In this document: positions 13,198 through 44,100 of the stretch, piece after piece
How the letters are laid out: every line of letters starts with the position of its first letter
Numbering within the stretch: the stretch's first letter is position 1
DNA from: Candidatus Angelobacter sp.
Lineage (GTDB): Bacteria > Acidobacteriota > Terriglobia > Terriglobales > Acidobacteriaceae
DNA: 64,000 bases
Assembly (NCBI GenBank): GCA_036495645.1
Contig: DASXMN010000011.1
Location: 62,940-126,939, forward strand
Direction: 5' to 3'
Program-made: the position numbers and the translations under genes
The notes under the pieces: model-generated
The model's database searches: none
Told to the model about the DNA's origin: nothing
The model's input: the letters and a program-made list of their open reading frames with translations, nothing else

Positions 13198-14334
13198 TTA
13201 GGATAATTTTTCCTGCGACGCCTCGGCTTTTTGAGCATCGGGCGTATGTGATTGAGCCTTCTCCCTGATCAGCCTCGCCCGGAGTTCCAGCATTGATCGC
13301 GTAACCTCATCTATCTCGCTGGCGCGAAATCCATCGGCTATCTGTGGCAGATATTGCTTGAAGGCATGCTTCGCCGCTTCTCCGAATTCCACATATCCAT
13401 GGTGAAGTATTTTCACGCCATCGGCGACTGCGATTCTTTCATTCCATGCAATTGCCTTCTGTTCTGAAAGATCGGCCGGCAAATTCAACTCCATGCGTGC
13501 GCCCGCTACTCGTACCGGATATCCTCCGGGAAGCCCAAATGGGCCGGGTACGTGGGTTTCCACATCTCGTGCGTCAAGGATGTCGCGCAGCAATACAGCA
13601 GCCGTACATCCAATCACTTTATTGACCTCCAAACCACCGCTTGTTCGTTGGCCTACCAGCAAGCTGCTCACATTCTCGCAACGCTTTCCATCAATCCAGG
13701 CCTGTGCTTCATCCACTCCAGGCTTGGGTGTGTATAAGTGCAGGTGATGGGCCATGACCTGCAAGCGCTGTTGGGGCATAAGACCCAGCGAAGACCGCAA
13801 CGTTGCCGCCAAAAGGGCAATATTGCCGATGCCGCAAAAGACTGGAAGGTCGAGGGCGCGCAACAGTGGATTGACTGCGTCAGGGTAGCAGCCATTGATA
13901 AAAAGAACTGACCGTGAATGCCCGGCAACGGCTTTGGCAAACTTGATTGCGAAAGCTGCCTGCAATGGCAATGTGAAACCAAATCCTGCGCTGCGGAGCA
14001 ACTGCGTCCATGATGAAGGTTGGTGAATACCTTCCCAGGGAGAGTAATAAGAAGCACAGTTTACGACCACGTCAGGTTGAATCGACGAAAGCAGCCTGCC
14101 AGCATCACCTGATTCGGCGTCAAATTCGACGGACTCGAAAATGACCGGTGATTGTATGCTTGCGGCTTTTGCGCGTGAGACATACATCATTTCATTCAAT
14201 TGGCTCCTGGATCGGGCGCAAATAATCACCCGATAAGGCCGGGAAAGCAATAGAGCCAACGAATAAGAAATGGCCCGCGCCAAAGACCCACTGCCGACGA
14301 TCAAGATGGTTGCATTCACGAAGTGTAATTGCAC
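13198..14334 (-). CDS. NAD(P)-binding Rossmann-fold oxidoreductase, saccharopine-dehydrogenase-like
   Basis: The start is set at GTG 14334, 9 nt after the permease stop. The track ATG 14406 would overlap the permease by 64 nt. The N-terminal dinucleotide motif is ILIVGSGSLARA, and DVVVNCAS follows. Size is ~378 aa. The family call is tentative. Confidence 0.4.
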   Translation of the reverse strand: MQLHFVNATILIVGSGSLARAISYSLALLLSRPYRVIICARSRSQLNEMMYVSRAKAASIQSPVIFESVEFDAESGDAGRLLSSIQPDVVVNCASYYSPWEGIHQPSSWTQLLRSAGFGFTLPLQAAFAIKFAKAVAGHSRSVLFINGCYPDAVNPLLRALDLPVFCGIGNIALLAATLRSSLGLMPQQRLQVMAHHLHLYTPKPGVDEAQAWIDGKRCENVSSLLVGQRTSGGLEVNKVIGCTAAVLLRDILDARDVETHVPGPFGLPGGYPVRVAGARMELNLPADLSEQKAIAWNERIAVADGVKILHHGYVEFGEAAKHAFKQYLPQIADGFRASEIDEVTRSMLELRARLIREKAQSHTPDAQKAEASQEKLS

Positions 14335-14342
14335 CTCACTTC

Positions 14343-23316: not shown

Positions 23317-23352
23317 GGTTTCTCCCACGAAGTCCTCGACGCAAAAGGGTGT

Positions 23353-26300: not shown

Positions 26301-29300
26301 TATCCCATGGCACAGAAACATCTCTTGGTATGATTTGCACCGGCCGGTCCAGGTCTTTGTACTTGAAAGCCACGCACAAATTTTTGTGGCGACGAAACAA
26401 AGCTTTAGCTGCATCTTGAAGCGATTTTTCATCGAGCGGCCCTTCCAGACGGAGAGCGATCTGGACGTTGTACACATCCGGTCCACCCGCATCATAAAAA
26501 GCATGGAAGAGCATTCCCTCCTGGACCGGTGTGAGCGGCAATATGTCTTCGATTTCTCCGTATTCGCTCTCAAGCTGGTCAATTTCAGATTGGGAGAGGG
26601 CGACCAGGGGCACGTCAGACGGCGTGAGTCCTCCCGATCCGGGTTGTTCGCTATGCTGGACAAGCGCTTCCAGCATGTGGAACCACCCTTCTGCCAATGA
26701 ATGAACGTCCTGTTCTGAAAATATTCCCGGCATCCACGTCCAGATGGCCGTCAACTCCGGACCGGCAGCCCGCTCCAGGACCATGGAATCCACTTGCAAT
26801 GGATGATGGAAGGCCATTTCAGGGTCCAGGCCTCCACTGAAAGATTCGGCGGGTGCCCAATCGACAGTTTCCGCCACCGGAAAACGGCCCAGGTAGTTGA
26901 AGTCAATTTGAGACTTGGCCAGAGCAGACAAAACTGACTCAGTTTCAGGATTCAAATAGCGCAGCAATCCATAACCAATCCCATTGTTGGGGACCGCGCG
27001 AAGCTGTTCCTTGATTGATTTGAGTGCTATTCCCAGCGCTTCCCCTCCCGCCCAGGCTTCCTCAAGGTCCAGCGGACCAGGATCAAGACGCACAGGAAAG
27101 ATGCTGGTAAAAAACCCCACCGTGCGCGAAAGATCAACCCCGTCGAAAATGCTTTCCCGCCCATGGCCTTCCATGTCAATTAAAACGGACGTGCCATTGC
27201 CCGGATGACGCTGTCGCCGCCATTTCAGAATGCTGAGAACCAGCCCAGTGAGCAGCACGTCATTGATTCGCGCATGAAATGCGCCTGCAACCCGGCTTAG
27301 CAAAGGAGCAGTAACTTTGGGCGGCAACGTAAGAACAATCTGGCTGGCTTTGCCCACGGTATCGCGACCGGGAACGAGTTGGTGGCCGGGAACAAGTTCC
27401 AGTGCGTCCTTCAACGTGTCAGTCCAGAAGGATAATTCCTTCACTCGCTCTGGATTCAGCGCCTCACGGCTTAATCGTTCAGCCCAGCCTCGGAATGAGA
27501 CGGGGGATGGTTCAAGTAGTGGAGAATTTCCAGCACTGATTGCTGCCCAGGCGGACGCGAGGTCTGGCAAGAGGATTCGCCAGGACACTCCATCGACGGC
27601 TAAATGATGGATAACCAGCAGCAAATGGCCGGACGAACTGCGGCCCGCGTCAAACCATATAGCCTGCAGCATGAGTCCGTTTTCAGCGGACAGCCGTTTC
27701 GTGGCAGCTTGTGCCTCCTCCTGTATCTTCTGCCTGCATACATCATCGGCAAGTCCTGCGATATAGATTGCATGCAAGCACGATTCTGCATTCACCGCGC
27801 CTTGCGCCAGTACCTCCAGTCTCCATTCCTCTCTGCGCCCTTCCGCGCCGGTGAAACGCAGGCGCAGAGCATCGTGATGATCCAGTATCGTCTGCAAAGC
27901 GCGCGCAAGATCCTGGCGCTCCAGATTGGCCGGGACTTGCAGCACAATAGACTGGCTGAAGCTATGCAGCGTGCCACCTGACTCCAGGAACCAGCACATG
28001 ATCGGAGTGGGTGGCATGGCTCCTACTCCGACATCGGGCACGGCAGCCGCCGCATCTTCGTTTTGGGCCTGGGAAATGCCCGCGAGGGCCTCAATCGTCG
28101 ATTGTTCAAAAACATCGCGCAAGCTAACGATCAGCCCCACTTTCCGCGCGCGACTGACCAACTGAAATGCCAAAATGCTGTCACCGCCCAGAGCGAAGAA
28201 ATTATCGTCCGGCGTGGCGCGAGAGATGCCGAGCACCTGCATCATGAGTGAACAGAAAACTTCTTCCGCATGTGTGCGAGGCGCGCGCCCTGAACGGCCC
28301 CCCATGAATTCAGGCGTCGGCAATGCCTTGCGGTCGAGCTTGCCGTTCGAGTTCAAAGGCAGAGAGGAGAGAACCGTAATGGAGGCGGGCACCATGTAGT
28401 TGGGCAGCATGTGAACCAGGCGCTCGCGCAACTCAGTGGCATTTAAGCTGCGGCCCGGGGCAGGAACCACGTAGGCAAACAGCCGCTTCTCCTCCTTCTT
28501 GTCCTCGCGCACAATCACGGCTGCGTGGCCCACGCCGGAACAGCCCAACAAAGCTGCCTCAATTTCTGCCAACTCGATGCGATATCCGCGAAGCTTGACC
28601 TGCTGGTCAGTTCGTCCCAGGAACTCTATCTGCCCGTCTTCTCTCCAACGCACTCGATCGCCGGTGCGATACATGCGTCCGCCAGAATTACGGAAGGGAT
28701 TCGGGACAAAACGCTCTGCCGTAAGATCAGGCCGTTTCAAATACCCGCGCGCCACTCCGGCGCCGGCAATAAATAACTCACCGGGAATACCCACCGGGAC
28801 CGGCTTGAAAGCAGAATCCAGAACGTAGACCTGGTGGTTATCCATGGCGCTGCCAATCGGCACATTGCCGTTCAACTTCTCCGGGTTGGACACCGCATAA
28901 TGGGTGGCAAAAGTAGTGGTTTCCGTTGGTCCGTAGCCATTGCACACCAGGGTCTCAGGGCAATGCCGGCGCAGCCGTTGGACGGCGGCGGCGGAAACAA
29001 CATCGCCGCCCGCCCATATCTCAGGAACACCGGAAAAGCATTCCGGTGCCTCCTGAACCAGCACATTGAAAAGGGCGGCTGTGAGGAACGTAGACGTGAT
29101 TTTCTCCGTCTGGAACAAACGCTTGTAATCGGCAACATCCAACTCGCCGGGCGGCGCAGTGATGACCTGTTTGCCTCGCAGTAATGGGGCCCAGATCTCG
29201 AACGTCGAAGCGTCAAAAGCGTGGGAAGAATGAAACAGCACTCTTTCCAAGCTCCCCTCCCGCCAGCTACGGTCGAATGCCAGGCTAACAACATTGCGGT

Positions 29301-31323
29301 GTGTTACGGCAACGCCTTTGGGAGTACCAGTGGATCCCGAAGTATACATGGCATAGGCAAGCTGGTCGGGATGGACCGCGACATTGGGATCGCTATCGTC
29401 TTCATTTTGCGCCGCCAGAGAAGGATCGCCATCGAGAATGATGACCTGGGTGTGAGTAAGTCCGCGGCTTGCAGTTGTACGGTCGAGGAGAAGCGCGGAC
29501 GCGCCTGCCTCTTCCATAATCAGGCGCATGCGCTCAAGTGGATACGCGGGATGTAGCGGAAGATATGCGCCGCCGGCTTTCAACACCGCAAGCGTGGCAA
29601 CTATCATGTCCACGGACCGTTCCATCAGGATGGCAACCACAGTCTCAGATTTGACGCCGGTGCTTATGAGCCTGTGAGCAAGATGGTTTGCCCGCTTATT
29701 CAGTTCACTATAGGTCAGCTCCGCTTGCGACGATCGAAGAGCAATGGCGTTTTCGGCCTGTGAAACCTGCACGGCAAAGCAGCTTTGAATGGTCTGCGTG
29801 GACGGATAGGGCACGGCAGTGTCATTCCAATCTGTAAGAATCTGTTGCCGCTCACGATCATTGATCAGCAGAAAATCATTCAGTCGCTTGCCCGGATCAG
29901 CCGTCGCCTGCTCGAACAAACGCTGAAAATGCTGCATCATACGCTCCCCTGTGGAGGCCAGGAAGAGATCGACAAGGTAGTCAAAAACCACGACGGCATG
30001 ATCGGTGTTATCGTTCACTCCGAGATTGACGTCCAGCCAGCCTGACTGGTAAAAAGCGTCAAATTCTTCCAGTGTCACGCCGGCCGGAGGTTGCGGCGGC
30101 TTGTGGTCGTTGCCAAACGCATACGAACTGTCCACCAGTGGCGCCCGGCTGGGATCACGCTCGGCCTGGAGTTTGTTCAACAGAAACTCAAAGGGCAAAT
30201 CGGAGTTCGCCATAGCTTCCAGTGTGGTCAAGCGCGTGCGCTGCAACAGTTCACGAAAGCTGGGATCGCCCGAGAGATCCAGACGATACACGATGGTATT
30301 GAGAAAGTAGCCAATCACAGGTTGCGTTTCCCGATGCTTGCGGCTGCTCACCGGCGTGGCAATGGGAATGTCATCTTTGCCGCTATATTCCCTCAGGAAC
30401 ATGGCAAAGACGGCGAGAAACCCTGTAAATCGTGTGACATTTTCAGCCGCACACAACTGCTTGAACTGCACCCACAACGTCTCCGGCAGATTCCATACAA
30501 GGCGCACGGCGCTAAAACTCCGGTTATGCGGGCGCGGCATGTCCGTTACCAGATCGAGGCGCGGCATGTCCGCGAGTTTGCGGATCCAATAGTCAGCTTG
30601 TCTGGCGGCTTCTTCAGACTTCATCCAGTGGTCGAGCCAGTAGGCAAAGTCGCCGTACTGAATCGTCAGATCGGGAAGGGGAGATGGCAATCCGCGGGAA
30701 AAAGCATCGTAAAGAGCAAAGAACTCATTATCAATCAAATCATAGGAAACAAAATCCGTGATGAGGTGATGGAGAGTGAGCATGACTGCATGCTCATGTT
30801 CAGTGACGCGGAAAAGAGTCGCTCGAATCAAAGGACCCTTCAGGATGTCAAAAGGCCGGCAAGTGTGGGCTGTAACCAGGGCTTGCAAACGCTCGTACCG
30901 GTCTTCCACAGGAAACTCCGGCACTTCCACCCGCTCCAGCGGAATCTGAAGCTCGGGAGCAACTACCGCCCTGGGCTTGCCGTCAATTTCCGGGAGCGAC
31001 GTGCGAAAATTCTCGTGGCGACGCACCATTTCGTTAATAGCACGCTCCACCGCATCAATATTCAAGTCGCCTTTCAGCCGATAGGCATGGGTATGGTTGA
31101 AGTAATAGACATTCGGATCAACCTGATGCAGCAGCCACAGATGTTCCTGCTCGGCAGTGAGTGGATAATCCGACGTGGGACGACGCTTGATGGCTGATTT
31201 GGATTCGCTTCGCGGCCCTTCACCTCGCAGCCGCTTCTGCAGCATTTCGCGCTGGGCCGGCGTAAGCCGGGAAATCCGCTCCTGATGGACGCTTGGTTCT
31301 TCACTGTGAACTTCGTTGCTCAT
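23353..31323 (-). CDS. non-ribosomal peptide synthetase NRPS3: C-A-T-E-C-A-T
   Basis: 2656 aa. C1 has the variant motif HHLITDFVS. A1 has YTSGSTGTPKG. T1 has FFALGGDSI. The E domain has HHLAVDGVSW, at about nt 26644-28026. The following C starts LPLTPVQEGMLFH and has HHILVDGWS, which is DCL-like. A2 has YTSGSTGQPKA. T2 has FYALGGHSL. It ends with the same ~45-aa tail as NRPS4. Confidence 0.95.
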   Translation of the reverse strand: MSNEVHSEEPSVHQERISRLTPAQREMLQKRLRGEGPRSESKSAIKRRPTSDYPLTAEQEHLWLLHQVDPNVYYFNHTHAYRLKGDLNIDAVERAINEMVRRHENFRTSLPEIDGKPRAVVAPELQIPLERVEVPEFPVEDRYERLQALVTAHTCRPFDILKGPLIRATLFRVTEHEHAVMLTLHHLITDFVSYDLIDNEFFALYDAFSRGLPSPLPDLTIQYGDFAYWLDHWMKSEEAARQADYWIRKLADMPRLDLVTDMPRPHNRSFSAVRLVWNLPETLWVQFKQLCAAENVTRFTGFLAVFAMFLREYSGKDDIPIATPVSSRKHRETQPVIGYFLNTIVYRLDLSGDPSFRELLQRTRLTTLEAMANSDLPFEFLLNKLQAERDPSRAPLVDSSYAFGNDHKPPQPPAGVTLEEFDAFYQSGWLDVNLGVNDNTDHAVVVFDYLVDLFLASTGERMMQHFQRLFEQATADPGKRLNDFLLINDRERQQILTDWNDTAVPYPSTQTIQSCFAVQVSQAENAIALRSSQAELTYSELNKRANHLAHRLISTGVKSETVVAILMERSVDMIVATLAVLKAGGAYLPLHPAYPLERMRLIMEEAGASALLLDRTTASRGLTHTQVIILDGDPSLAAQNEDDSDPNVAVHPDQLAYAMYTSGSTGTPKGVAVTHRNVVSLAFDRSWREGSLERVLFHSSHAFDASTFEIWAPLLRGKQVITAPPGELDVADYKRLFQTEKITSTFLTAALFNVLVQEAPECFSGVPEIWAGGDVVSAAAVQRLRRHCPETLVCNGYGPTETTTFATHYAVSNPEKLNGNVPIGSAMDNHQVYVLDSAFKPVPVGIPGELFIAGAGVARGYLKRPDLTAERFVPNPFRNSGGRMYRTGDRVRWREDGQIEFLGRTDQQVKLRGYRIELAEIEAALLGCSGVGHAAVIVREDKKEEKRLFAYVVPAPGRSLNATELRERLVHMLPNYMVPASITVLSSLPLNSNGKLDRKALPTPEFMGGRSGRAPRTHAEEVFCSLMMQVLGISRATPDDNFFALGGDSILAFQLVSRARKVGLIVSLRDVFEQSTIEALAGISQAQNEDAAAAVPDVGVGAMPPTPIMCWFLESGGTLHSFSQSIVLQVPANLERQDLARALQTILDHHDALRLRFTGAEGRREEWRLEVLAQGAVNAESCLHAIYIAGLADDVCRQKIQEEAQAATKRLSAENGLMLQAIWFDAGRSSSGHLLLVIHHLAVDGVSWRILLPDLASAWAAISAGNSPLLEPSPVSFRGWAERLSREALNPERVKELSFWTDTLKDALELVPGHQLVPGRDTVGKASQIVLTLPPKVTAPLLSRVAGAFHARINDVLLTGLVLSILKWRRQRHPGNGTSVLIDMEGHGRESIFDGVDLSRTVGFFTSIFPVRLDPGPLDLEEAWAGGEALGIALKSIKEQLRAVPNNGIGYGLLRYLNPETESVLSALAKSQIDFNYLGRFPVAETVDWAPAESFSGGLDPEMAFHHPLQVDSMVLERAAGPELTAIWTWMPGIFSEQDVHSLAEGWFHMLEALVQHSEQPGSGGLTPSDVPLVALSQSEIDQLESEYGEIEDILPLTPVQEGMLFHAFYDAGGPDVYNVQIALRLEGPLDEKSLQDAAKALFRRHKNLCVAFKYKDLDRPVQIIPRDVSVPWDTLDLSALGAVEREQSWAELMQRDRLTRFNPSVSPLFRFLMVRCAPEEFRLLITTHHILVDGWSVPLMIAELQQLYEHHGSAAALPRVTAFRDYLAWLSSRDRSAAEAAWRETLAGLEEGTRISPLASLGDPKIPERMIVELDEETTRRLKEQARARNLTVNTIVQGAWAVLLSRHTGREDVVFGSTVSGRSPEIAGVESMIGLLINTVPTRVTLRSADSFNDVVSRLNQEQSRLLAHQHLGLVEIQRLTKLNELFDTLVVFENFPRGEEGDAEPSGGLRFTVMDLNDAAHYPLTVVVAPGRRLGMYFTYNPDHFSSSLIETMSRRFVRLLTAYATAPDQPVNFIDLLDARERRQIVVEFNQTHTEYPRNRTMMELFAEQVERRGEELAVICDQEKISYIELDRRSNQLGRYLRNLGVGPEKLVGISVERSVDMVLAMVGILKAGGAYVPIDPAYPPDRLRFMAEDSDIGVWLTQGRLANRIPTLKANVVCLDRDWDEIAQQSHQSFQTQVLPENLAYVVYTSGSTGQPKAAAVSHRSLIRLLRETNYIQFQGDEVVAQTVNMSFDPSTFEIWGALLNGCRLVIIGNEVLLDVERFAAEIIDKRVQVMFLATALFNEVGRLKPAMFNSVKHLLFGGEAVYPVTAAAVLEHGGPERLVNAYGPAECTTFSGWYVVKEVARDAPSVPIGKPVANTQLYVLDRNMNLEPVGIRGQLYIGGEGLARGYWRRPELTAERFVPDPYGQPGGRLYNVGDLARWMEDGNLEFFGRADNQIKIRGFRVELGEIEVALLQHRRVRNCAVLMKTLASGKQLVAYVSGEANADELKNYLKAKLPEYMVPGVYVMLPELPLNTNGKVDRRALPEVEDRVLQEIHEDVPEAMTAIEELLADLWKEVLGVVRVSMRSNFYALGGHSLLALRVVSRINDYFQTGLSVRTLLEYPVFTEFAQKLRSISARPVQEMEKIARIGLMVRKMTPEERTAALSTR

Positions 31324-31539
31324 GTCTTTAGAAAATCTCCCATTCTCGCAGGTGGCTCCTGCCTGGAATTGCCGCCAATGCGTGGTAGTGGAGCAAGTTT
31401 GACTGCTCCCTGTATCAGCATCTAGCGATTCGCTTTTGCGAATCGCGTGCCTTTAGGCAGACGTAATCGCGACAGCGATGAATCCTCGTATCCACAGCCG
31501 GGCACCCAAAACCAAACTGAGTTCCGGAGCTATTGCTGT

Positions 31540-32718
31540 TTATGTCTCAACTCTTACTGAAATGTAATCTGCTATCGGAGGAATCGATGCCAGGCCATGC
31601 TCCAGAATCTGGACCCCTCCTCTGTTCTCGATTTCCGTAAATCCAGCAAACTTGTAAGTGACGTACATCATGCGGTTGCGGTCATTCGATACAAATTCAG
31701 AAAGCAGCCGGACCCTGGATTCCCGCGCCTTCCTCAGAATATGGTTCAACATGATTGTGCCCACACCCCGGTTCATCACCCGGCAGGACATGAGCAGCAG
31801 CTCGATCGTCCACACTTCAGGATCGCATTCCACCAGGGCAAGGCCAATTTTTCCGTAACTGCCAAACTTGTCAGTCAACTCAGACATGAGCAGGAGGTGG
31901 CGATCTGAGCACCGCAGTTTTTCCAGCTCTTCCCGGGAAAAGGTGCGTCCCGTGGTGTTGAGTTGATTGGTACGGTTGGTAAGTTCCTCCGCCCGGGCCA
32001 GGTCTTCGGCACGCGCAGGAGAGATCGTAAACACCATGCCGAGAGTAGCGAGGAATTCCTCCTGTGGTCCGGTGAATGTGTCTTCTGTCTGCTTACGTCG
32101 CATTTCGCCCAGATACATCTGGCGTCGCATGCGGGATTCTGCCGTGATGGTCTCAGGGTTTAGTTCCGGCATCCGCAGCAGATGGAGCAATTGGGTATGG
32201 TCCACACAAAGGACCTGCGGCAGTGCAGCCCGGACTTCCGCAAGCTCAAAGGGCTGGTCGTCAATAAAACAGATGCTATCCAGGCCGATGTTAAGACTTT
32301 CAGCGATCATCCGTATGGAAGCCGCCTTGGATCCCCAGTTAATCTGGGGATACAGGAAGTATTCTTCCAACTCCAGTTCACGCAACCGGGCCAGCGCCGA
32401 TTCTGGATGATTGCGGCTAGCGATGGAGTTCAGAATGCCGCGAGCATCAAGTACGTGGATGATTTCCAGAACACCATCGCGCAGATGTACCTCATCGCCT
32501 TCAAGCAAAGTCCCGTCCCACAGGGTATTATCCAGGTCCCAAACGACGCACTTGACCTTGGGCCGTTTCACGGGCGCCGCGGCGTCTCTTGAAATTTCGT
32601 TTTGGATTCCGAGTTCATTCACAAGTAACGTCTCACTTGGCCGTGACTGCGCTGTCCGCAACTTCCTGACAGGCACTCTGCGCAATCGTGATTTCCTGGA
32701 TCTCATTGCTGCCTTCAA
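31540..32718 (-). CDS. FkbH-like HAD-superfamily phosphatase/acyltransferase (glyceryl-ACP forming)
   Basis: The HAD motif I block is VVWDLDNTLWDG, followed by NSIASRN...GSKAASI...FIDDQPFE. There is a GNAT-like C-terminal half. The start is uncertain: ATG 32718 overlaps the upstream gene by 86 nt, whereas GTG 32622 lies 10 nt past its stop. Confidence 0.85.
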   Translation of the reverse strand: MKAAMRSRKSRLRRVPVRKLRTAQSRPSETLLVNELGIQNEISRDAAAPVKRPKVKCVVWDLDNTLWDGTLLEGDEVHLRDGVLEIIHVLDARGILNSIASRNHPESALARLRELELEEYFLYPQINWGSKAASIRMIAESLNIGLDSICFIDDQPFELAEVRAALPQVLCVDHTQLLHLLRMPELNPETITAESRMRRQMYLGEMRRKQTEDTFTGPQEEFLATLGMVFTISPARAEDLARAEELTNRTNQLNTTGRTFSREELEKLRCSDRHLLLMSELTDKFGSYGKIGLALVECDPEVWTIELLLMSCRVMNRGVGTIMLNHILRKARESRVRLLSEFVSNDRNRMMYVTYKFAGFTEIENRGGVQILEHGLASIPPIADYISVRVET

Positions 32719-33784
32719 TGATCTCCATTATCTTGGCGTCCCGATAAAAGCGTTCTGCCGGATATTCGCTGCTGCATCCGTTTGCGCCGTGTATTTGAAC
32801 AGCATCCCGGGCAATCTTCGCGGCGGTCGTGCAGGCGAAGTATTTCGCAATCGAAGTCTCAATCATTGAGGCGGGATCGCCGGCATCCTTGAGTTGTCCG
32901 GCGTTGTAGCACAGCAAACGGGCTGCTTTCACGCCCACCACCACGCGCGCGATGATACGCTGAACCAGCTGGTGGTCCCGCAAGAGAGCGCCGAACTGTT
33001 TTCTCCGGCCGGTGTATCGCAGGCACGCTTCCAAACATGCCTGGGCAATGCCCACGCAGCCCCAGGCCACACTGTAACGGCCGCAATCCAGGGCTGAGGA
33101 GGCAACATGAGAAAGGCCGAACCCGGGAGCGCCGATCATGTTTTGTTTCCGCACACGGCATTGTTCCAGGTGGAGTTCAGCCATCATGGAGGCGCGCGTG
33201 CCCAACATGCCATGCACAGGCGAAATCACCAGTCCGGGCGTATTTCGTTCCAATAAGAAGGCACACGGGGCCCGCTGGCTTCTGGCGAATACCAGAAACA
33301 AATCTGCAATCTGCGCAAAGGTAATCCATTTCTTATGTCCGCTGAGAAGAAAATCATCACCGCTGGCCACGGCCTCTGTCCTGATTTCCCGCGCATCACT
33401 TCCGGCTTCGGGCTCGGTGAGAGCAAATGCGGCTATTGCCTGCCCCTGCCCCAGCTTTTCCAGCCACTGGGCCTTTTGCGCTTCCGTTCCCCACCGCCAT
33501 ATTGCCAAAGCAGCCATGCTATGCACGGTCAACAAACTGCGGAGGGATGAACAGCCTCGCCCCAATTCCTCATTCAGCAGGCCAAATTCAACCATATTGA
33601 ACCCGGCGCCGCCACGATCAGCCGGCAGCACTGCTCCGAGATAGCCCTTAACAGCCAATTGCCGCACCATCTCCGCCGGCATGACTTCTGCCTGGTCCCA
33701 GGCATTGGCGTAGGGTACGATCTGCGCGTCCGCAAATTCCCGGAACGCAATCCGTAGCCGCTGCTGTTCAGGAGTAAGTTCCAT
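32633..33784 (-). CDS. acyl-CoA dehydrogenase-family enzyme (FkbI/ZmaE-like, acts on acyl-ACP)
   Basis: 383 aa with the ACAD fold (AFALTEPEAGSD, ...YRDAKIMEIIEGSNEIQ). It is embedded with the FkbH, ACP and 3-hydroxyacyl-CoA DH genes. Confidence 0.85.
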   Translation of the reverse strand: MELTPEQQRLRIAFREFADAQIVPYANAWDQAEVMPAEMVRQLAVKGYLGAVLPADRGGAGFNMVEFGLLNEELGRGCSSLRSLLTVHSMAALAIWRWGTEAQKAQWLEKLGQGQAIAAFALTEPEAGSDAREIRTEAVASGDDFLLSGHKKWITFAQIADLFLVFARSQRAPCAFLLERNTPGLVISPVHGMLGTRASMMAELHLEQCRVRKQNMIGAPGFGLSHVASSALDCGRYSVAWGCVGIAQACLEACLRYTGRRKQFGALLRDHQLVQRIIARVVVGVKAARLLCYNAGQLKDAGDPASMIETSIAKYFACTTAAKIARDAVQIHGANGCSSEYPAERFYRDAKIMEIIEGSNEIQEITIAQSACQEVADSAVTAK

Positions 33785-33796
33785 AAAGATCCAGCG

Positions 33797-34054
33797 TCAA
33801 TTCGCGCCGTTCTGCGAGTTCGAAGTCTTTCTCTCTATCAGCTCCGCCATGGCGTTAACGCTCTGAAAATTTTTTAGCTCCAGGTCCTCGTTGCCAATGG
33901 CGATCTTAAAGTTCTTTTCCAGGAACAATACGAGTTGCATGGCAAACATAGAGTTGACAAACCCAGCCGCAAAAATCTGATCGTCATCAGCAATCGTCCG
34001 GCCGCTGATATGTCGCCCCAGGAAAGCCCTCAGTTTTTCTTTCGATTGCTCCAT
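33797..34054 (-). CDS. discrete acyl carrier protein (FkbJ/ZmaD-like)
   Basis: 85 aa with a DltC-like carrier pattern, GFVNSMFAMQLVLFLEKNFKIAI...NFQSV. The phosphopantetheine Ser is in NSM. Confidence 0.75.
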   Translation of the reverse strand: MEQSKEKLRAFLGRHISGRTIADDDQIFAAGFVNSMFAMQLVLFLEKNFKIAIGNEDLELKNFQSVNAMAELIERKTSNSQNGAN

Positions 34055-34078
34055 GAATTTCTTTCCTTGCAGGATTGA

Positions 34079-35023
34079 CTAATCTTCGTAACTATAAAAT
34101 CCGCGTCCGTTCTTGCGGCCGTACAGGCCGGCATCCACCATCTGCCGGAGTAGCGGACAGGGGCGGAATTTGCTGTCTTTAAATTCGTCATACAGGACCT
34201 CAATAGAAAGCAGAATGGTATCCAACCCAATGAGGTCGGCGGTTTCCAGCGGACCCATCTTATGCTCGAAGCAGTTCTTGAAAATATCGTCCACTGCCTC
34301 GGGCGAGGCGACTTTTTCCTGCACCAGAAAAATCGCTTCGTTGATGGTCAGCATCAGTACCCGGTTGGAAACAAATCCGGGCGAATCATTCACCAGGATG
34401 GCCTTTTTGCCCATAAGACCGAGCAACCGGGTTGCTGTAGCAATGGTGTTGTCGCTGGTGTGATAGCCGCGAATCACCTCAACCGCCGCCTTCAGCGGTA
34501 CCGGATTCATGAAATGCATACCAAGTACACGTGCGGGCTGGCGCGTTAAGGCGCTGATCCGGGTGATAGGAATAGCAGAGGTGTTGGCGGCGAAAACGCA
34601 TTGCGGAGAACAAATCGCATCCAGCCGGCGATACACCTCCGTCTTGACCGTCAATTTTTCCGTCACATTTTCAACCACGAAATCGGCATCCCGCAGAACG
34701 TCATAGTCGGCAGAAACCTTGATGCGCCCCAGGATTTCTTCAGGACCACTGCCCTGATTCCTGTGAAATAAACGCTGGAAACGAACGTTGTTTCTGATCT
34801 GCCCAAGGGCGGACTCCAGAATGGGATCGGAGACATCTATCAGCAGGGTGCGCAACCCGCTCTGGGCCAACGCATGGGCCAGGCCCACACCCATGACTCC
34901 CGCTCCAATCACACCTATGGTTTCAAGGCGGGGAAGACCCAGGTTGTCCCCGGATTGCTTGTCGTCAATCACCGGCGGATGGGCGGACATCATTTGTCTC
35001 CATTCCGGACAGTGCGGACTCAT
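34079..35023 (-). CDS. 3-hydroxyacyl-CoA dehydrogenase-family enzyme (FkbK/ZmaG-like)
   Basis: The dinucleotide fold is IGVIGAGVMGVGLAHALA, and the protein is Hbd-like throughout. The start is uncertain: ATG 35023 overlaps the PKS gene by 59 nt, and alternatives are ATG 34993/34990 or GTG 34972. Confidence 0.85.
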   Translation of the reverse strand: MSPHCPEWRQMMSAHPPVIDDKQSGDNLGLPRLETIGVIGAGVMGVGLAHALAQSGLRTLLIDVSDPILESALGQIRNNVRFQRLFHRNQGSGPEEILGRIKVSADYDVLRDADFVVENVTEKLTVKTEVYRRLDAICSPQCVFAANTSAIPITRISALTRQPARVLGMHFMNPVPLKAAVEVIRGYHTSDNTIATATRLLGLMGKKAILVNDSPGFVSNRVLMLTINEAIFLVQEKVASPEAVDDIFKNCFEHKMGPLETADLIGLDTILLSIEVLYDEFKDSKFRPCPLLRQMVDAGLYGRKNGRGFYSYED

Positions 35024-38000
35024 CCATGTTCTCGATCATGGTCAGCAGGGCGTCCTCAACAAACAGGGCGATCTCAGATACGGTACCCGATTTCAACAGC
35101 GCGCCAAGGGGGAACTCGATTTGAAAGGCTTCACGCAACTCCGCGGCTACGCGTATGGCTAAAAGCGAATTTCCGCCTAAACGCAGAAACTCGTCATGAA
35201 TTCCAATGGGATGCACCCCCAACAACTCCTCCCATATTTCCACAATCTTTTGCTCGGTGAAATTACGCGGCGCGACATATTCGGCGCTCAGGTATGACCG
35301 CGAATTCACCATGCCGTTGCCTTCCGGCTGGGTGCCTTGGTTTGATGCAACTATTTCGTGTGTGAACGGAGCAGCCATTGCATTAGCCTTCGCGGGTTCG
35401 GCTTCCCGCTTTTCCTTACGCCGCCTGCTGGGCGTGTGCCAATAGGATTGCCGCTCGAAAGGATACGTCGGAAGCGGGACGCGGTTTCTCCGTTCATTGC
35501 GATGGACTCCGATCCAGTCGGGTTCAATGCCTGCCAGCCATAAATTTCCAAGAGTACTGAGAATAAAAGCACGATCCGGCTGCGCGTCCGATGCATGCGG
35601 CAGGGAAGCCAGCGCGACCCGATCAGCCAAGCCTCTACCGCCAAGATACTGTTCGGCAAGTGACGTCAGCATTTGACCGGGTCCGATCTCCAGAAACACT
35701 GGCGCAGATGGTGAGCACATCTGTTGTAAGCCTGCCGCAAACTGGACCGGCTGCGTCAGATGCCGCGCCCAATACGTGGGATCAGTGGCTTCAGAATCCG
35801 TAATCGGTTTGCCGGTCACATTGGAAATGTAAGGAATTTTGGGAGGACTGAGACGGATTGAGCGCGCAATTCTGGTCAATTCCTCGGCTACCGGCGCCAT
35901 CAGCGGTGAATGGAAAGCATGGGTTGCAAGAAGCCGCCGGCACACGAGTTCGCCTTCGCGCAGCAGGCGCTGTTGCAATGCATCAATCGCCTCCAGTGTG
36001 CCCGCAACTACGCACAGTGATTTGCCATTGATGCCCGCCATGGAGATTTCCGGGGTGAGCAGCGGCCGGATTTCTTCTTCTGACGCCGCGATGGCCAGCA
36101 TTGCGCCAGGGGCAAGCGCTTCAATTCTCTGCGCCCGAACTGCCAGCATACGTAGGCTGTCTTCCAGTGAGATAACGCCGGCCAGGCATGCAGCCACATA
36201 TTCCCCAATGCTATAGCCCATCATGCTTTCCGGAACCACGCCCCAGCTCATCCAGAGTTTAGCCAGCGCATACTCGATGATAAAGAGCGCGGGTTGCGCC
36301 CACAAGGTACGATGAATTTCCTGCAAAGCCGGGGAGCTTTCATCGCGCGCACGCTGCACCAGGTTGCGGAAGTTCATACGTTCTTCCGTCCTGACTTCAT
36401 TCTGCTGCCGCACGCGGGAATCGGGATACATGGTCTTACGCAGATCAACCCCCAAAAGCGGCTTGAGGAACTCGGAGCAATGGTCAACATGGCGCGCGAA
36501 TTCAGGCTCCGATTCATACAAGCCACGGCCCATATCGAGGTATTGATCTCCCAATCCCGGCAACAGGAAAGCAACAGGACGCCGTCCCGATGGCGCCACA
36601 GCAGTGAAGACCTGGGAAGGAGTCCGAGCCTGTAAGAGGGTTATAGCGGCGGAAGCGTCGCGAGAGACAACCATGCGCCTGTGCTCGAAAGCCTTTCTCC
36701 CTTGCTGCAAAGTGAATGCGACATCGGCAAAGTTCTGCTCCGGATGTTGCAGCAGATGTGCGGCCAATTGATCCGTAGCTCGCTCCAGCGCCTGCCGGCT
36801 CCTGGCAGAGATCATGATGAGTTGCCATGACCTTGCCGGTTCCGATGGTTTTGTCTTCGGCGCTTCCTCCAAAATCACATGTACGTTGGTGCCCCCGATC
36901 CCAAATGAGCTTACTCCCGCTCGCCGCGGCTTGTTGCTTTCCGGCCAGGGAGAAAGCGTGTGATTGACCCGGAAAGGACCGCGTTCGAAGGGAATTTTGG
37001 GGTTCGCCTTCCGGAAGTTCAAAGAAGGCGGGATATAACCATGCTGAAGGGACAAAATAGTCTTAATCAACCCAGCCACTCCGGCCGCTGCGTTCAGATG
37101 TCCAAGGCTGCTCTTCACAGATCCCACGGCAATGCTTGCGGACTTGAGAGCAGCCTGGCCATAGGCCTGATTCAGCGCCGCGATCTCAATCGGATCTCCC
37201 ATTGTTGTGGCGCTGCCGTGAGCTTCGATATAGCCGATGCTTGCGCATTCCACTTCCGCTGCCGCAAGCGCCATGGCAATGACTTCCGCCTGCCCTTCAA
37301 CCGCGGGAGCAGTGAAACCGACTTTCCTGCGGCCATCGTTGTTGACTGCTGAACCCTTGATGACTGCGTAGACGGTATCGCCATCGGCAACCGCGTCCTC
37401 CAGACGCTTCAAAAGAACAACGCCAACTCCATCACCGCTTACCGAGCCACTGGCATCGGCATCAAAACTGCGGCAATGACCATCGGCGGAAGCAATGCCT
37501 CCGGACTCGTACATGTACCCGCAACGCTGGGGTACGCTGACGGTCGCGCCGCCGGCCAGCGCCATATCGCACTCATAGGTCATCACTGCTCGAGCAGCCG
37601 CATGAACGGCGGCAAGCGAGGTGGAACATGCCGTTTGGATATTGAAGCTCGGACCCCGCAGGTTAAGGCGGTAAGAGACGGTCGTCGCCAGATGGTCCTT
37701 CTCCGCGCCACCCATCAGGAGGCGAAAAGCGCTTACGGAGTCTCCTTCCATCTCCTCTCCTGCAAGTTGCCATATATAAGAGGTGAATGACATTCCAGCA
37801 TAGACGCCGATCATCCCGAGAAATTTCTCCGGCTCCCATCCCGCAGATTCCAGGGCTTCCCACGCGCACTCCAGAAACAACCGTACCTGCGGGTCCGTCA
37901 ATTCTGCCTCGCGTGGCGAGTAACCAAAAAAACCAGCATCGAACAAATCAGCGTCCTGCAGCACTCCTCGGGCTTTCACATAATTCGGATGGCGCAGCAG

Positions 38001-38162
38001 CTCAGGGCTGATTCCGGCTTGTTCCAATTCTTGGTCAGAGAAAAACGACGTTGCTTCAATTCCCTGGTACAGGTTCTCCCAGAACCGCTGGAGATTGGGG
38101 GCCTGGGGAAATCGTCCCGCCATGCCGATGATTGCTATTCCGTCAAGTGCGTCCCTGGTCAT
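34965..38162 (-). CDS. type I polyketide synthase module: KS-AT-carrier (no KR/DH/ER)
   Basis: 1065 aa. The KS has DGIAIIGMAGRFP and the active-site block TACSTSL. The AT has GYSIGE (nt 36201-36218) and HAFHS. The carrier domain is PCP-like (YVAPRNFTEQKIVEIWEELLGV...FLRLGGNSLLAIRV). The start ATG overlaps the NRPS2 stop (ATGA). Confidence 0.95.
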   Translation of the reverse strand: MTRDALDGIAIIGMAGRFPQAPNLQRFWENLYQGIEATSFFSDQELEQAGISPELLRHPNYVKARGVLQDADLFDAGFFGYSPREAELTDPQVRLFLECAWEALESAGWEPEKFLGMIGVYAGMSFTSYIWQLAGEEMEGDSVSAFRLLMGGAEKDHLATTVSYRLNLRGPSFNIQTACSTSLAAVHAAARAVMTYECDMALAGGATVSVPQRCGYMYESGGIASADGHCRSFDADASGSVSGDGVGVVLLKRLEDAVADGDTVYAVIKGSAVNNDGRRKVGFTAPAVEGQAEVIAMALAAAEVECASIGYIEAHGSATTMGDPIEIAALNQAYGQAALKSASIAVGSVKSSLGHLNAAAGVAGLIKTILSLQHGYIPPSLNFRKANPKIPFERGPFRVNHTLSPWPESNKPRRAGVSSFGIGGTNVHVILEEAPKTKPSEPARSWQLIMISARSRQALERATDQLAAHLLQHPEQNFADVAFTLQQGRKAFEHRRMVVSRDASAAITLLQARTPSQVFTAVAPSGRRPVAFLLPGLGDQYLDMGRGLYESEPEFARHVDHCSEFLKPLLGVDLRKTMYPDSRVRQQNEVRTEERMNFRNLVQRARDESSPALQEIHRTLWAQPALFIIEYALAKLWMSWGVVPESMMGYSIGEYVAACLAGVISLEDSLRMLAVRAQRIEALAPGAMLAIAASEEEIRPLLTPEISMAGINGKSLCVVAGTLEAIDALQQRLLREGELVCRRLLATHAFHSPLMAPVAEELTRIARSIRLSPPKIPYISNVTGKPITDSEATDPTYWARHLTQPVQFAAGLQQMCSPSAPVFLEIGPGQMLTSLAEQYLGGRGLADRVALASLPHASDAQPDRAFILSTLGNLWLAGIEPDWIGVHRNERRNRVPLPTYPFERQSYWHTPSRRRKEKREAEPAKANAMAAPFTHEIVASNQGTQPEGNGMVNSRSYLSAEYVAPRNFTEQKIVEIWEELLGVHPIGIHDEFLRLGGNSLLAIRVAAELREAFQIEFPLGALLKSGTVSEIALFVEDALLTMIENMDESALSGMETNDVRPSAGD

Positions 38163-41100
38163 GGTGTCTGTATCCTTCTTAACTTTTGTACGGCGCTTTT
38201 TTGCCGCTCCGCCCGGTTCCGTGTTTCACGGGACTTCCCCTCAAAATTGTAACCCGCGTGAAGAAAGCGGACGAGAGAATCAATCGTGGGAAATTGAAAG
38301 AGATGCAGGAGTTCAATCTCAACCGAAAGTTCCGCGCGCAGTTTCTGATGGAGCTGGATCATGAGGAGCGAATGCCCGCCAAGATCAAAAAAGTTGTCAT
38401 GCACTCCCACCTGATCTACCCCGAGGGCGGTCTGCCATGCAGTGGCAATGGTTTGTTCCAATTCGGTTCGCGGGAGCACAAACTCCGTGGTTAATTGCTC
38501 CTGGCCCAGAACGGACAATGCGGCTCGATCCACCGCACCTCTGGCATTCTGCGGCAACTCCTGCAACGTAATGAAAGCGTCTGGAATCATGTAGGGAGGT
38601 AGCTTGTCATCAAGGAAGCTGCGCAGCTCATTCTGACCCAATCTCTTTCCGTTGTGGACCACGACATAAGCAATCAGTTCGCCATTGGGACGTACAACGA
38701 CCGCCGCTTCCTGCACGCTTTCGTAATTCGCCAGCACGGCTTCAATTTCTCCCAACTCGATCTCGACGCCCTCCATCTCTACCCGATCATCAAGTCTGCC
38801 CATAAGTTCGATAGTTCCATCCTTTCTGTATCGAGCACGCTCTCCGGTTCCACACATACGCCCACCCATTTCCGATGTAAACGGATTGGGAAGAAACTTC
38901 TCCGCCGTCAGTGACGGCCGCCCCATGTAACCACGGCCCGCGGCAGGTCCGGCAATCCACAGCTCCCCTGGAACGCCAATGGCAACCCGCTGCAGGTGCG
39001 GATCGAGGACGTAGATCTCTGCGTTGCCGCGTGGCCTGAATCTGGTTCGTTCTCCTTCTGCAAACGACGTGAGAAAGGCAGAGCTGGAGACCAGAAAAGA
39101 ACTTGACGTTAAACGCGACAAGATTTCCGGACAGCTATTCTCTTGGGCATGCCCATTTTGGTTCGCCGTATCAGCGGCCTCGCACTCCAATACAAGATCC
39201 ATCAGCGCGCTGTGCTCAAGCATCAGACCTTTGGCGTGTCCCTCCTGTGCGCCGGTATAGATGACACAAGCGAGGTTCCGGGGATTGATGTGAACATCAG
39301 GGTTTGTTGCGCTGTGCTGCCCTATCATCTCCCATTCCGAATCCAAACAAACCACGGGCGCATTGGTCTGCGGGAGACGCTTGCGCAGGCCCTCCAGGGT
39401 CAGCAACACGTCAACGTCAGAACTCTCAAGAATGACCCGCAGACGATCTTTAGGATTCAGGATGTCCAGAGGCAGATAGGCCCCACCGGCTTTTAGCACT
39501 CCCATGGTGGCCACCATCATCTCCTGCGAATGCGGCATGAAAATGCCGACCATTGATTCCGGCGCCACTCCCATGCGGGCGAGATAATGCCCAACTTGGT
39601 TGGCCCGGCGGTTCAGATCCCCATAGCTGAATTGCGTTTCGCCAAAAGTTGCAGCCGATTCTTGCGGCCGGTGTTCTGCTTGCGCATCGAAAATCTCGGT
39701 GACGTTGTTCTCCGGGCGAGAGACCAGGCCAACTTCGTTCCAACTGGACAAAACCCTCTCGTCCAACTCGCTCATCATGGGCAATGCCCAAACCGGTTGG
39801 TCGGCGTCTGCAACGATTCCCTCCAGCAGACGCTCATAACGTTGCAACATCTGGCGGATGGTCTCGGCCTCAAATAAGTCTCTGCTGTAGTTAAGGCCAA
39901 TCACTGCGCTCTGCCTGGCCTCTTCCACGCCCATAATAAGATCGAACTTAGAAGTACCAGGGTCCAGTGCGAACGGGACCAACTCCAACCCTCCTAATTC
40001 CGACTTACCCGCAACTGCCCGGCGCAACGTAAACGCCACTTGAAAAACAGGGGTACGGCTAACCTCACGGTCCGGCGCCAGATCTTCCACCAATTTTTCA
40101 AATGCCAGGTCCTGATGTTCGTACCCGCTCAGCACCGCCTCCCGTACTCGCCGCAGCACCTCGCGGAAGGTGGGTTCTCCGCCCAAGTTCGCGCGTATCA
40201 CCAGCGTGTTCAGAAAAAAACCAATCAACCCTTTCGTCTCTTTCCGCTTGCGATTGGCCACCACCGTGCCGACTCCAAAATCCTCCTGCCCGCTGTATCT
40301 CATCAACAGCACCTGGAACGCCGCCAGCAGGGTCATGAGCAAGCTGGCCTTTTCTGTCCTCCCGACCGCATTCAAACCTTCCAACAAATCGCTTCGCAAA
40401 ATTCCCTGCTCTGTCCCTCCGCGAAAACTCTCCCGCGCTGGCCGCACATAGTCCGTCGGCAACTCCAGCACTTGCGGCATCCCGGCTAACTGTCGTTTCC
40501 AGTACTCCATCTGCTGCTGGAACTTCCCTCCACGCAGCCCTTCTCTCTGCTCCAGCGCATACTCCCCATATTGCATTTCCAATTCCGGCAGCGGCGACTC
40601 TTCTCCTCTCCCATACGCCTCATACAATTTTCCCAACTCCTCCATGAATACGCCCAAAGACCAGTCATCACAGACAATGTGGTGCAGCGTCAGGCCCACA
40701 ACATGCTCCCTGTCTCCCGTCTGCACCAACACTCCTCGCAGCAAAGGCGCATGGCCTAAATCAAATGCTTTTCCAGCCTGTTCCGCCAGAACCTTCTTCG
40801 CCTGCTCCTCTCGCTCGCCTGCCTCTAGCGCCCGCAAGTCCACTACCGGCAATCGTAGGTCGAGCTGCTCCGCAAGAACTTTCTGGCTTGGTTCTTCGTG
40901 TTCGTCCGTCACAAAGCAGGTCCGCAGGACTTCATGTCGCCGCACCAGTTCCTGAAAACTCCGTTCCAGCCGAGGAACGTCCAAGTCGCCTTTGAGCTTC
41001 CAGGTCATAGGCACGTTGTAGAACGCATTGCCGGGATTGAACCGGTCCAGAAACCAAAGCTGCTCCTGCTGGTAGGAAAGCGGGAAGACAGAGAGTCTTG

Positions 41101-44100
41101 AGGCAGCAGCTCTCTGCGCCGGTTTGACGCCTTTGTCGGCTCCTGATTTCCTTCCCGGCAATTTCAAGCCAAGCTCTATCACCTCTGCCAGTTCCACAAG
41201 GGTTGGTGATTCAAATATCGCTCGTACCGGAACATCTATTCCAAACGCGTTCTCCATTCTGGTCGCCAATAATGTCGCAAGCAATGAGTGTCCGCCCAGG
41301 TCAAAGAAATTATCGTGTCGTCCAACGCGCGTGATTTCCAGCGCCTCGGCCCAAATCTGCGCCAATTGCTCCTCTACCTCAGTATGAGGAGCTTCGTAGT
41401 GCTCAGCTCCCAAATCCAGATCCTCAAACTTTTCCAGTGCCTCCCGGTCTACCTTCCCATTGCCCGAGAGCGGCAACTCGTGCAAGGTCACGATGAGGCT
41501 TGGAACCATGTACGCTGGAAGCTTGCCTTTCAGGTCTCGCCGCAACTCATCACGGTCCCGCTCTCCAACCACATACGCCACCAGCCGTTTACTTCTATTT
41601 GCGCCAGTCTTCGCCACCACTGCACAGCCCCGTATCCCGCTCTGCTGTTGCAGCATCGCCTCAATCTCTCCCAATTCCACGCGGTAACCGCGTATCTTCA
41701 CCTGGGAATCATTCCGTCCAATAAATTCGATCGTCCCATCCGGACGCCATCTCCCAAGGTCTCCTGACCTATACATCCGCGATCCCTCTTCATTGGCAAA
41801 CCGATTCTTAAGAAAACGCTTTTCTGTCAAATCTGGACGGTTCAAATACCCTCGCGCGACGCCCGCTCCCCCAATGTACAGTTCTCCTGCCACTCCCACC
41901 GGAACGAACTGCTCGTACTTATCCACTATGTAAATCTGCGCATTCGCAATTGGGCGCCCGATCGGCGGCAACAGGGGCCAACGGTTCCTTTCCATACTCA
42001 AATGGAATGCAGATGCAGCGTGGGTTTCTGTCGGACCATAATGGTTGTTCAACCGGCAGTGCTCCAGGCGCGTAAAGAGTCCTTTTATCTTGTCATTGAT
42101 GCGCAGTTGCTCCCCGGCTACGTTTATTTCCTGCAGTGCACAAGCGAAAGGCTCTTTGCCGATCTGGGCCACGCCATCGGCAAACATTTGCAGCCCAACA
42201 TAGGGAAGAAATAAGCGCTGGATGCCTTTCTCTATCACATAGCGCGTCATGTCTGTGGCGTTGCGTCTCTTCTCTTCATCGATCAGGACCAAAGTCCCGC
42301 CTGCGCATAAGGTGCTGAAGATCTCTTGAAATGAAACGTCAAACCCGAGTGCGGAAAACTGCAAGGTGCGCTGTGGTCCAGTCCACGCTGATTCATTCAT
42401 CTGCCACATAATCATGTTCATCGCGGCACGCGCCGGCATGGCAACGCCTTTGGGCAGACCAGTAGAACCCGACGTATAGATGACGTATGCCAGGTCCTTG
42501 GCGCTCAATCCAATGGTGGTGTGCTCCGGGTTCGAGTCGGGTTGGTTACTCCACGGCTCTGCGCCTCTCAGGTCAATCAACTTCAAGTCCTCTCTGACTT
42601 CCGTGAACAACCCGCGAAGATGGCTTTGGGTCAACAACACCCCCGGCCTGCTGTCCTCCAGCATGAATCGCAACCGCTCTTCCGGATATGCAGGATCCAT
42701 CGGTACGTATGCCCCTCCCGCCTTCATCACGGCAAGCAGCCCTACAATCATTTCCAGGCTGCGGTCCACGCATACGGCTACCAGCGTGTCCGGTTTCACC
42801 CCCAACGCTCGCAGATAATGGGCTAACCGGTTGGCCTGGCGATTCAAATCACCATATTTAAATTTCTGCCCTTCGTACTCCACCGCCACAACATTCGGTG
42901 TCTTCGCCGCATGCTCTTCGAACAATCTTCCGATGGTCTTGTCGCGCGGATAGTCTCTGGCGGTCTGATTCCATCTTTCCAGTTGCTCCCTCTCGGGCTC
43001 GGTCAACAAGGGCAGGTTCCACACCCGCTGCTCCGGATTTTCCACCACCGCCTTCAGTAACTGCTCGTAATGTCCCAGCATCCGCTGGATAGTTTCCGCT
43101 TCAAACAAGTCAGTGGCGTAGTTGATCGTAACCGCTGCGCCCTGCGTGGCCTCCTGCACACTTATGACGAGATCGAACTTAGACATCCCAATATCTATCT
43201 CGAAGCCGCTCAACCCCAATGCCCCGAATTCCAATGGGTCGGGCTCGCCCAGCGTCGTAAACAGCACTTGAAATATGGGGGTACGGCTGACATCACGGTC
43301 GGGCGCCAATTCTTCCACCAATTTTTCAAATGACACATCCTGATGCGCGTACCCGCCCAGCGCCGCCTTACGCACTTGCCGTAGAACTTCACGGAAGCTG
43401 GGCCCGCTGCTCAAATTTGCGCGTATCACCAGCGTGTTCAGGAAGAAACCGATGATTTGTTCCATCTCTATCCGCTTACGGTTTGCTACTACTGTTCCAA
43501 TTCCAAAATCCTCCTGCCCGCTATACCTCATCAGCAGCACCTGGCACACCGCCAGCAGCGTCATGAATAAGCTGGCCCGCTCTCCCTTTCCCACGGCATT
43601 TACGCCTTCCAGCAGGTCGCTGCTTAGGCTTCGCTGCTCAATCCCTCCACGGAAACTCTGCCGCGCCGGCCGCACATGGTCCGTCGGCAGCTCAAGCACT
43701 TGTGGCATTCCTTCCAACTGCCCTTTCCAATACTCCATCTGCTGCTCTAACCCTCCTCCACGCAACCCTTCCCTCTGCTCCAGCGCATACTCTCCATATT
43801 GCATTCCCAATTCCGGCAGCGGCGACTCTTCTCCTCTTCCATACGCCTCATACAATTTTCCTAACTCACTCATCAATATTCTCAACGACCAGTCGTCACA
43901 AATAATGTGGTGCAGCGTCAGCCCCAAAACGTGCTCCCTTTCTCCCATCCGCACCAATAGTCCCCGCAACAACGGCGCTTGGGTTAAATCAAAGGCCTTG
44001 CTACCCTCTTCCGCTATAATCTTCTTCGCCTGCTCCTCTCGCTCACTTGCCTCTAACTGCCGCAAATCCATTACCGGCAACCGCACATCGACTTTCTCCC

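Follow-up and report, generated by a model that had tools for sequence, protein, structure and literature searches.

Candidatus Angelobacter belongs to the Acidobacteriota; it is a soil genus without cultured members. The genome considered here (GCA_036495645.1) is 5.1 Mb in size and rated 100% complete, and the window, a stretch of 64,000 nt from its 197-kb contig DASXMN010000011.1, carries a hybrid non-ribosomal peptide synthetase–polyketide synthase (NRPS–PKS) cluster. Open reading frames (ORFs) and Pfam domains place this cluster on the minus strand between ~12 kb and ~58 kb; all of its features given below lie on that strand. Our subject is a run of five genes in its middle. A single PKS module of 1065 aa, with the Pfam organization ketosynthase–acyltransferase–thiolation domain (KS–AT–T; 34965-38162), is followed by a four-gene cassette. 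This cassette encodes a 3-hydroxyacyl-CoA-dehydrogenase (3HCDH) homologue of 297 aa (34079-34972), a discrete acyl carrier protein (ACP) of 85 aa with a PP-binding domain (33797-34054), an acyl-CoA-dehydrogenase (ACAD) homologue of 383 aa with three acyl-CoA-dehydrogenase domains (32633-33784) and an FkbH-family glyceryl-ACP synthase/phosphatase of 360 aa (31540-32622), which would fill the roles of FkbK/ZmaG, FkbJ/ZmaD, FkbI/ZmaE and FkbH/ZmaN, respectively. The ATG at which the PKS begins shares nucleotides with the stop codon of the NRPS gene directly before it (38159-47686), and a gap of 216 nt (31324-31539) separates the FkbH gene from the next NRPS gene (23353-31323), which opens with a condensation (C) domain. 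An earlier note on this DNA had put the five genes exactly here, and Pfam and NCBIfam confirm their families.

The same note had taken the four cassette genes for a hydroxymalonyl-ACP gene set. All four families are indeed present, score above curated cut-offs and keep their catalytic motifs intact. The 3HCDH homologue matches 3HCDH_N and 3HCDH in Pfam (E 9e-54), the ACP matches PF00550 at 24.1 bits (cut-off 20.8), and the FkbH-family enzyme, encoded by the only FkbH gene of the genome, matches TIGR01686 at 270.6 bits (cut-off 146.65). The latter has the motifs DLDNT, the DxDxT phosphatase motif, and MSCRVM, with the C-terminal Cys, and both are kept across ~80 relatives. The ACP attachment residue, Ser35 (33950-33952), stands in the motif GFVNSMFAM, which is kept in 53 of 76 cassette ACPs; the Ser itself is found in all 76. 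No free-standing adenylation (A) domain occurs in or beside the cassette, and the loader is an FkbH-family enzyme, unlike in aminomalonyl-ACP systems of the ZmaJ/H/G/I or ClbH/E/D/F type, where a serine-activating A domain does the loading.

Two cassette genes had been reported to overlap upstream genes by 86 and 59 nt, but both overlaps prove to be artefacts of taking the longest ORFs (31540-32718 and 34079-35023), as homologues of ~60% identity start 29-36 residues later. For FkbH, GTG 32622 is the only fitting start and gives 360 aa (356 in homologues) with a gap of 10 nt past the ACAD stop. For the 3HCDH homologue, the only fitting start is GTG 34972, with 297 aa (285 in homologues) and an overlap of 8 nt with the PKS stop; a protein begun at the following start codon would lose part of its Rossmann fold. 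Judged on these alignments, the two GTG codons are likely to be the true starts. Across the AT and the four cassette genes, comparison with four orthologous loci (78-91% protein identity) gives ratios of non-synonymous to synonymous substitution (dN/dS) of 0.06-0.17, with 0.09-0.15 for the 3HCDH homologue and ~0.10 for the ACAD homologue. Such purifying values indicate that the cassette is kept by selection in the Angelobacter lineage.

By analogy with characterized systems, FkbH would dephosphorylate a three-carbon phosphate from glycolysis, which in the Zma system is 1,3-bisphosphoglycerate, and load the glyceryl group on Ser35 of the ACP, after which the 3HCDH homologue would oxidize C3 to the aldehyde and the ACAD homologue the aldehyde to the carboxylate. 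FkbH-type enzymes serve tetronate, glycerate or lactate starter routes in other pathways, and the cassette might likewise halt at glyceryl-ACP or the aldehyde and so give a C3 unit of that kind instead of a C2 extender. We give this explanation hardly any weight. The cassette has the two dehydrogenases, both intact and both subject to purifying selection, no FabH-like enzyme for tetronate formation turned up among the ORFs annotated in the window, and the PKS is an extending module, its KS active to judge from the motifs, set between NRPS genes.

The module next to the putative hydroxymalonyl-ACP cassette comprises ketoacyl-synt, Ketoacyl-synt_C, KS–AT linker, Acyl_transf_1 and PP-binding domains. 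Pfam detects no ketoreductase (KR), dehydratase (DH), enoylreductase (ER) or methyltransferase (MT) domain in it, which bears out the claim that the module lacks the three reductive domains, and it is also the single cis-AT PKS module of the genome. The Cys-His-His motifs of the KS appear in the translation as TACSTS, EAHGSAT and KSSLGH. The carrier domain (35061-35252), with Ser999 at 35166-35168 in LGGNSL, is of the peptidyl carrier protein (PCP) type and has the signature YVAPRN..EQKIVEIWEELLGV..LGGNSL, resembling the NRPS carriers of the same window. The earlier note was right about this PCP-like character but went too far in reading it as the mark of a recombined chimeric module. A PCP-like carrier is common to relatives of the PKS down to ~45% identity, including KS–AT–KR–T modules of Chloroflexota and Acidobacteriota, so that the trait goes far back in this PKS family and is no evidence for recent recombination, and the idea that an NRPS carrier was recently fused to a PKS module is rejected.

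The AT of this module (Pfam; residues 532-840, 35643-36569) is the sole cis-AT of the cluster and has its catalytic Ser and Arg. Its nucleophile elbow reads GYSIGE (36201-36218), with His replaced by Tyr, and the carrier-recognition and 'YASH' region reads VCR–RLLAT–HAFH (35910-35945). A published comparison (PMC4207774, Table 2) gives GYSFG and GAAH for ZmaA-AT, which uses hydroxymalonyl-ACP, GYSLG and GPFH for ZmaF, which uses aminomalonyl-ACP, and GHSIG and HAFH for ZmaK-AT, which uses malonyl-CoA. A hydrophobic patch, MCM in ZmaA, is proposed there to replace the basic RxR of CoA-using ATs (PMC4207774). The elbow Tyr of the Angelobacter AT is thus as in ZmaA-AT and ZmaF, two ATs with demonstrated use of extenders bound to an ACP. 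Use of the other PKS ATs of the genome as an internal control was considered and dropped, as the whole genome yields no more than four AT-like matches. Two metagenome orthologues of the PKS depart from the HAFH motif: P0001 (96% identical) reads LAFH and P0028 (87%) reads HAFQ, in which the catalytic His is replaced. These variants may stem from sequencing errors or mark copies that are inactive.

The company kept by the cassette was surveyed in 80 genome loci, chosen by FkbH similarity alone from a species-level collection of genomes in which relatives of this FkbH are encoded in at least 568 places. The earlier note had called hydroxymalonyl use rare. With at least 568 such places, and with a minimal KS–AT–T module plus cassette also present in Microcoleus, rarity applies only to characterized cases. 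The order 3HCDH–ACP–ACAD–FkbH is complete in 59 loci outside the Angelobacter group, 43 of which have a cis-AT within 10 kb, and a GYS-type AT is present in 38 of these 43. Upstream of the cassette lie 37 GYS ATs, usually in the module immediately before it, and the ATs of the remaining modules in the surveyed loci mostly read GHSIGE and HAFH. The architectures that bear a GYS AT are varied: KS–AT–T (Microcoleus L057), KS–AT–T with a fused FkbM-type MT, KS–AT–MT–KR–T (many Nostoc), KS–AT–KR–T and the free-standing AT. The last stands immediately before the cassette in three cyanobacterial loci (L082:6179-7591, L079:3863-5317 and L038:3635-5044). These free-standing proteins, of ~470 aa and with the KS–AT linker retained, look like cis-ATs detached from their module. 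Some cyanobacterial loci also have genes for Cupin_8/JmjC-type oxygenases within the cassette or next to it (L038:7435-8373, L038:8862-9839, L050:8930-9826 and L079:6580-7551). A literature search found no characterized product for the cyanobacterial or the Angelobacter clusters.

A second sample, picked by PKS similarity and meant to avoid circular sampling, holds seven distant GYS homologues. The cassette is adjacent in four; in one more FkbH is 6 kb off on the same contig, one stands on a contig filled entirely by PKS genes, and around the last no cassette lies within 10 kb. In a phylogenetic tree the 49 GYS ATs of the loci all fall into a single clade (SH-aLRT 89). ZmaA-AT fell outside this group in the free tree search, but a tree constrained to include it was not rejected by the approximately unbiased (AU) test (p-AU 0.56), and common descent of the clade with ZmaA-AT is neither shown nor excluded by that result. 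The free tree suggested that His gave way to Tyr independently in ZmaA and in the GYS clade; neither such convergence nor its opposite is claimed here. A Cys or Thr seven residues after the active Ser was tried as a marker of cassette use and proved uncorrelated with it, the GYS ATs having Thr in 35 cases and Cys in 21.

Taken on its motifs and gene order, the cassette probably makes hydroxymalonyl-S-ACP, and the neighbouring PKS module probably uses this as its extender unit. Several observations weigh against such a reading. The second AT motif, HAFH, is normally read as specifying malonyl-CoA, and ZmaA-AT has GAAH at this place. The patch VCR is only half of the MCM patch of ZmaA, with a hydrophobic first position (Val) and an Arg at the third. 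Against the PDB the AT scores 246 bits with the PKS 8xjy, 233 bits with ZmaA (4qbu) and 227 bits with the malonyl AT of CurL, so that ZmaA is no closer than the others; as all three score alike, the PDB score was dropped as a test of specificity, and a literature search found no paper naming 8xjy. The ACAD homologue matches FkbI (1r2j) at 207 bits (E 3e-60), lower than the ~250 bits reached by generic short-chain ACADs, which makes the comparison uninformative, and FkbI was dropped as a specific relative. Finally, among sister clusters of ~62% identity that share the NRPS–PKS–NRPS layout, the cassette is complete in L097, reduced to the dehydrogenase and an ACP fragment (residues 5-46) in L099, and gone from L092 and L098, in which the PKS is followed directly by the next NRPS. 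The AT reads GYSIGE and HAFH throughout, in L092, L098 and L099 despite the loss, and the GYS type of AT may thus be able to work without an adjacent cassette. The ATs of these sisters would either be fed by another cassette, related genomes holding up to three FkbH genes, or be able to use malonyl-CoA as well. This persistence is the main reason why we call the use of hydroxymalonyl-ACP probable and nothing firmer. Motifs and scores by themselves do not settle the specificity of the AT.

The same two observations, the HAFH motif and the survival of GYS ATs in sisters without a cassette, favour an ordinary malonyl-CoA AT, with the product of the cassette, glyceryl- or hydroxymalonyl-ACP, used elsewhere, for example to load another carrier domain. 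We consider this unlikely. The cassette and the GYS AT clade travel together across phyla and in module architectures that are very different, some loci reduce the association to a five-gene unit of free AT and cassette, and the remaining modules of the same loci read GHS. The change to GYS is shared with two ATs that use ACP-bound extenders (PMC4207774), and the cassette has an ACP of its own, so that FkbH needs no other carrier.

If hydroxymalonyl-ACP is the product, the next matter is methylation. That the extender is hydroxymalonyl rather than methoxymalonyl, as the earlier note supposed, is the best-supported reading, there being no linked FkbG-type gene and a GYS AT adjoining the cassette. 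The note had seen no FkbG-type O-methyltransferase in the window and proposed a search of the rest of the contig; this has now been run, and no gene of the family (PF01596) was found on the 197-kb contig. Matches to PF01596 are confined to other contigs, and the one strong match (150 bits, contig 15) is flanked by genes for a yfcH-type oxidoreductase and a phosphatidylinositol-phosphate synthase, neighbours that mark it as a housekeeping gene. The family also has matches in 13 of 14 control genomes. The cluster itself has just one methyltransferase, a domain that lies inside the first of the A domains of the last NRPS (16897-23328; residues ~554-685). It is not FkbG-like and not placed for the cassette, and it acts on the amino acid of its own module.

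The earlier note had also named an O-methyltransferase just outside the window as a finding that would point to methoxymalonyl. Sequence was examined for 30 kb past the upper end of the window, and there is a methyltransferase there, at window-equivalent 69.7-70.5 kb and 5.6 kb outside, but it is an S-adenosylmethionine (SAM)-dependent enzyme of the LCM/TIGR00027 type, not FkbG-like and not conserved. It is missing in four of the five related genomes with the cluster and in the fifth it and the cluster are on separate contigs, and for this reason we do not count it in the pathway. A methoxymalonyl-ACP extender, methylated by this enzyme or by the PF01596 enzyme of contig 15, could appeal to the presence of these two genes and to relatives of the module, L005 and L033, in which an FkbM-type methyltransferase follows the carrier. 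It is nevertheless highly unlikely, given the poor conservation of the LCM enzyme and its position past a set of radical-SAM genes resembling those for ribosomally synthesized and post-translationally modified peptides (RiPPs), the housekeeping setting of the PF01596 gene on another contig and the family's near-ubiquity in the control genomes, and the lack of a methyltransferase domain in the PKS module of the window.

In L005 (678-4637) and L033 (3705-7643) the domain fused behind the KS–AT–T carrier belongs to the FkbM family (PF05050) and may carry out an on-line O-methylation that is absent from the module of the window. As for the genes beyond the head of the cluster, from 62201-64000 on to ~70.5 kb (G000:C11:125140-133468), they comprise two B12-binding radical-SAM genes, a gene for a 974-aa AMMECR1-domain protein and the LCM/TIGR00027 methyltransferase gene. 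The first radical-SAM gene matches TIGR03975, a RiPP maturation C-methyltransferase, at 510 bits, and to judge from these families the set looks like a neighbouring RiPP-type cluster.

The hydroxymalonyl unit would then enter the assembly line as follows, inferred from motifs and synteny. The GYS-type AT would move hydroxymalonyl from the discrete ACP to the PCP-like carrier of the module, and the KS would condense it with the peptidyl chain delivered by the upstream NRPS. If assembly follows gene order, the resulting thioester would be passed to the C domain of the NRPS encoded at 23353-31323. As the module has no KR, DH, ER or MT domain and no O-methyltransferase is linked to it, the unit should leave as a 2-hydroxy-3-ketoacyl thioester. 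The only stand-alone enzyme of the alcohol-dehydrogenase type found in the cluster is a zinc-type (MDR) alcohol dehydrogenase encoded at its head (56379-57680); in two related genomes it shares a contig with FkbH and lies ~25 kb upstream of it. It is, speculatively, the sole candidate for a trans-acting reductase of the 3-keto group. Two syntenic homologues of this dehydrogenase have stop codons within the match, three in G001:C78:131197-132381 and two in G003:C14:282311-283573. These probably result from N-terminal over-extension of the 433-aa ORF of the window, gene decay being the alternative.

The remaining genes of the cluster include a first NRPS gene (47691-55856; ORF and Pfam), which lies between the dehydrogenase gene and the NRPS gene before the PKS; the NRPS gene with the embedded methyltransferase (16897-23328) is the last of its kind. 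An ORF of 402 aa (13198-14406), beside a MacB/FtsX-type permease gene, has no match in Pfam or NCBIfam.

To our knowledge, few extenders besides hydroxymalonyl-ACP place an oxygen straight onto the polyketide backbone, and the pathways characterized as using hydroxymalonyl-ACP amount to a handful. The gene set itself is already known and common in cyanobacterial and soil-bacterial genomes, so the Angelobacter case is fairly ordinary and involves no new chemistry in principle. Its use lies rather in a rule for genome mining: a GYSxGE AT beside 3HCDH–ACP–ACAD–FkbH probably uses hydroxymalonyl-ACP, even with a malonyl-type second motif. A bolder proposal, to which we would give somewhat less than an even chance, is that ATs combining GYSxGE with HAFH form a distinct and widespread clade specific for hydroxymalonyl-ACP, found in Cyanobacteriota, Acidobacteriota, Chloroflexota and Thiotrichaceae, and that in Angelobacter the unit enters the peptide unreduced and unmethylated. 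If such a clade is hydroxymalonyl-specific, current rule-based predictors would wrongly assign malonate to an entire class of clusters, and the sisters without a cassette would be natural experiments in the reversion of an AT to malonyl-CoA. If the 3-keto group stays unreduced, the Angelobacter product would contain an unusual and reactive 2-hydroxy-3-keto (reductone-like) amide unit.

Among characterized systems, the fkbGHIJK genes of FK520/FK506, with equivalents in ansamitocin, geldanamycin and bafilomycin, have homologues of FkbH, FkbI, FkbJ and FkbK in the Angelobacter cassette, but FkbG is absent there. The AT of FkbA keeps the His of GHSxG (PMC4207774), whereas the Angelobacter AT has Tyr. 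Hydroxymalonyl-ACP is used in the biosynthesis of xenocoumacin and amicoumacin (PMC5688692, PMC4894447). These have a hybrid NRPS–PKS line and a hydroxymalonyl extender without O-methylation, as proposed for Angelobacter. In Bacillus pumilus a homologue of the PKS (P0105) has GHS ATs, with a weak FkbH-like match (24% identity) within 10 kb. The zwittermicin A system of Bacillus cereus (ZmaN, ZmaD, ZmaG and ZmaE with the cis-AT of ZmaA) has the same four enzyme families, likewise no O-methyltransferase and the same hybrid NRPS–PKS setting. It differs in the AT, where ZmaA has GAAH and MCM against HAFH and VCR in Angelobacter, and in reduction, the Angelobacter module being without a KR and the 3-keto group not being reduced on the module.

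The cyanobacterial clusters of Nostoc, Microcoleus, Scytonema and others share with Angelobacter both the GYS AT clade and the order 3HCDH–ACP–ACAD–FkbH, with proteins 47-63% identical. The likeness extends to the module itself in Microcoleus L057, where a minimal KS–AT–T protein of 1072 aa stands immediately before the cassette. Many other cyanobacterial relatives add an MT and a KR, a KR alone or an FkbM-type MT to this plan; the Angelobacter module does not.

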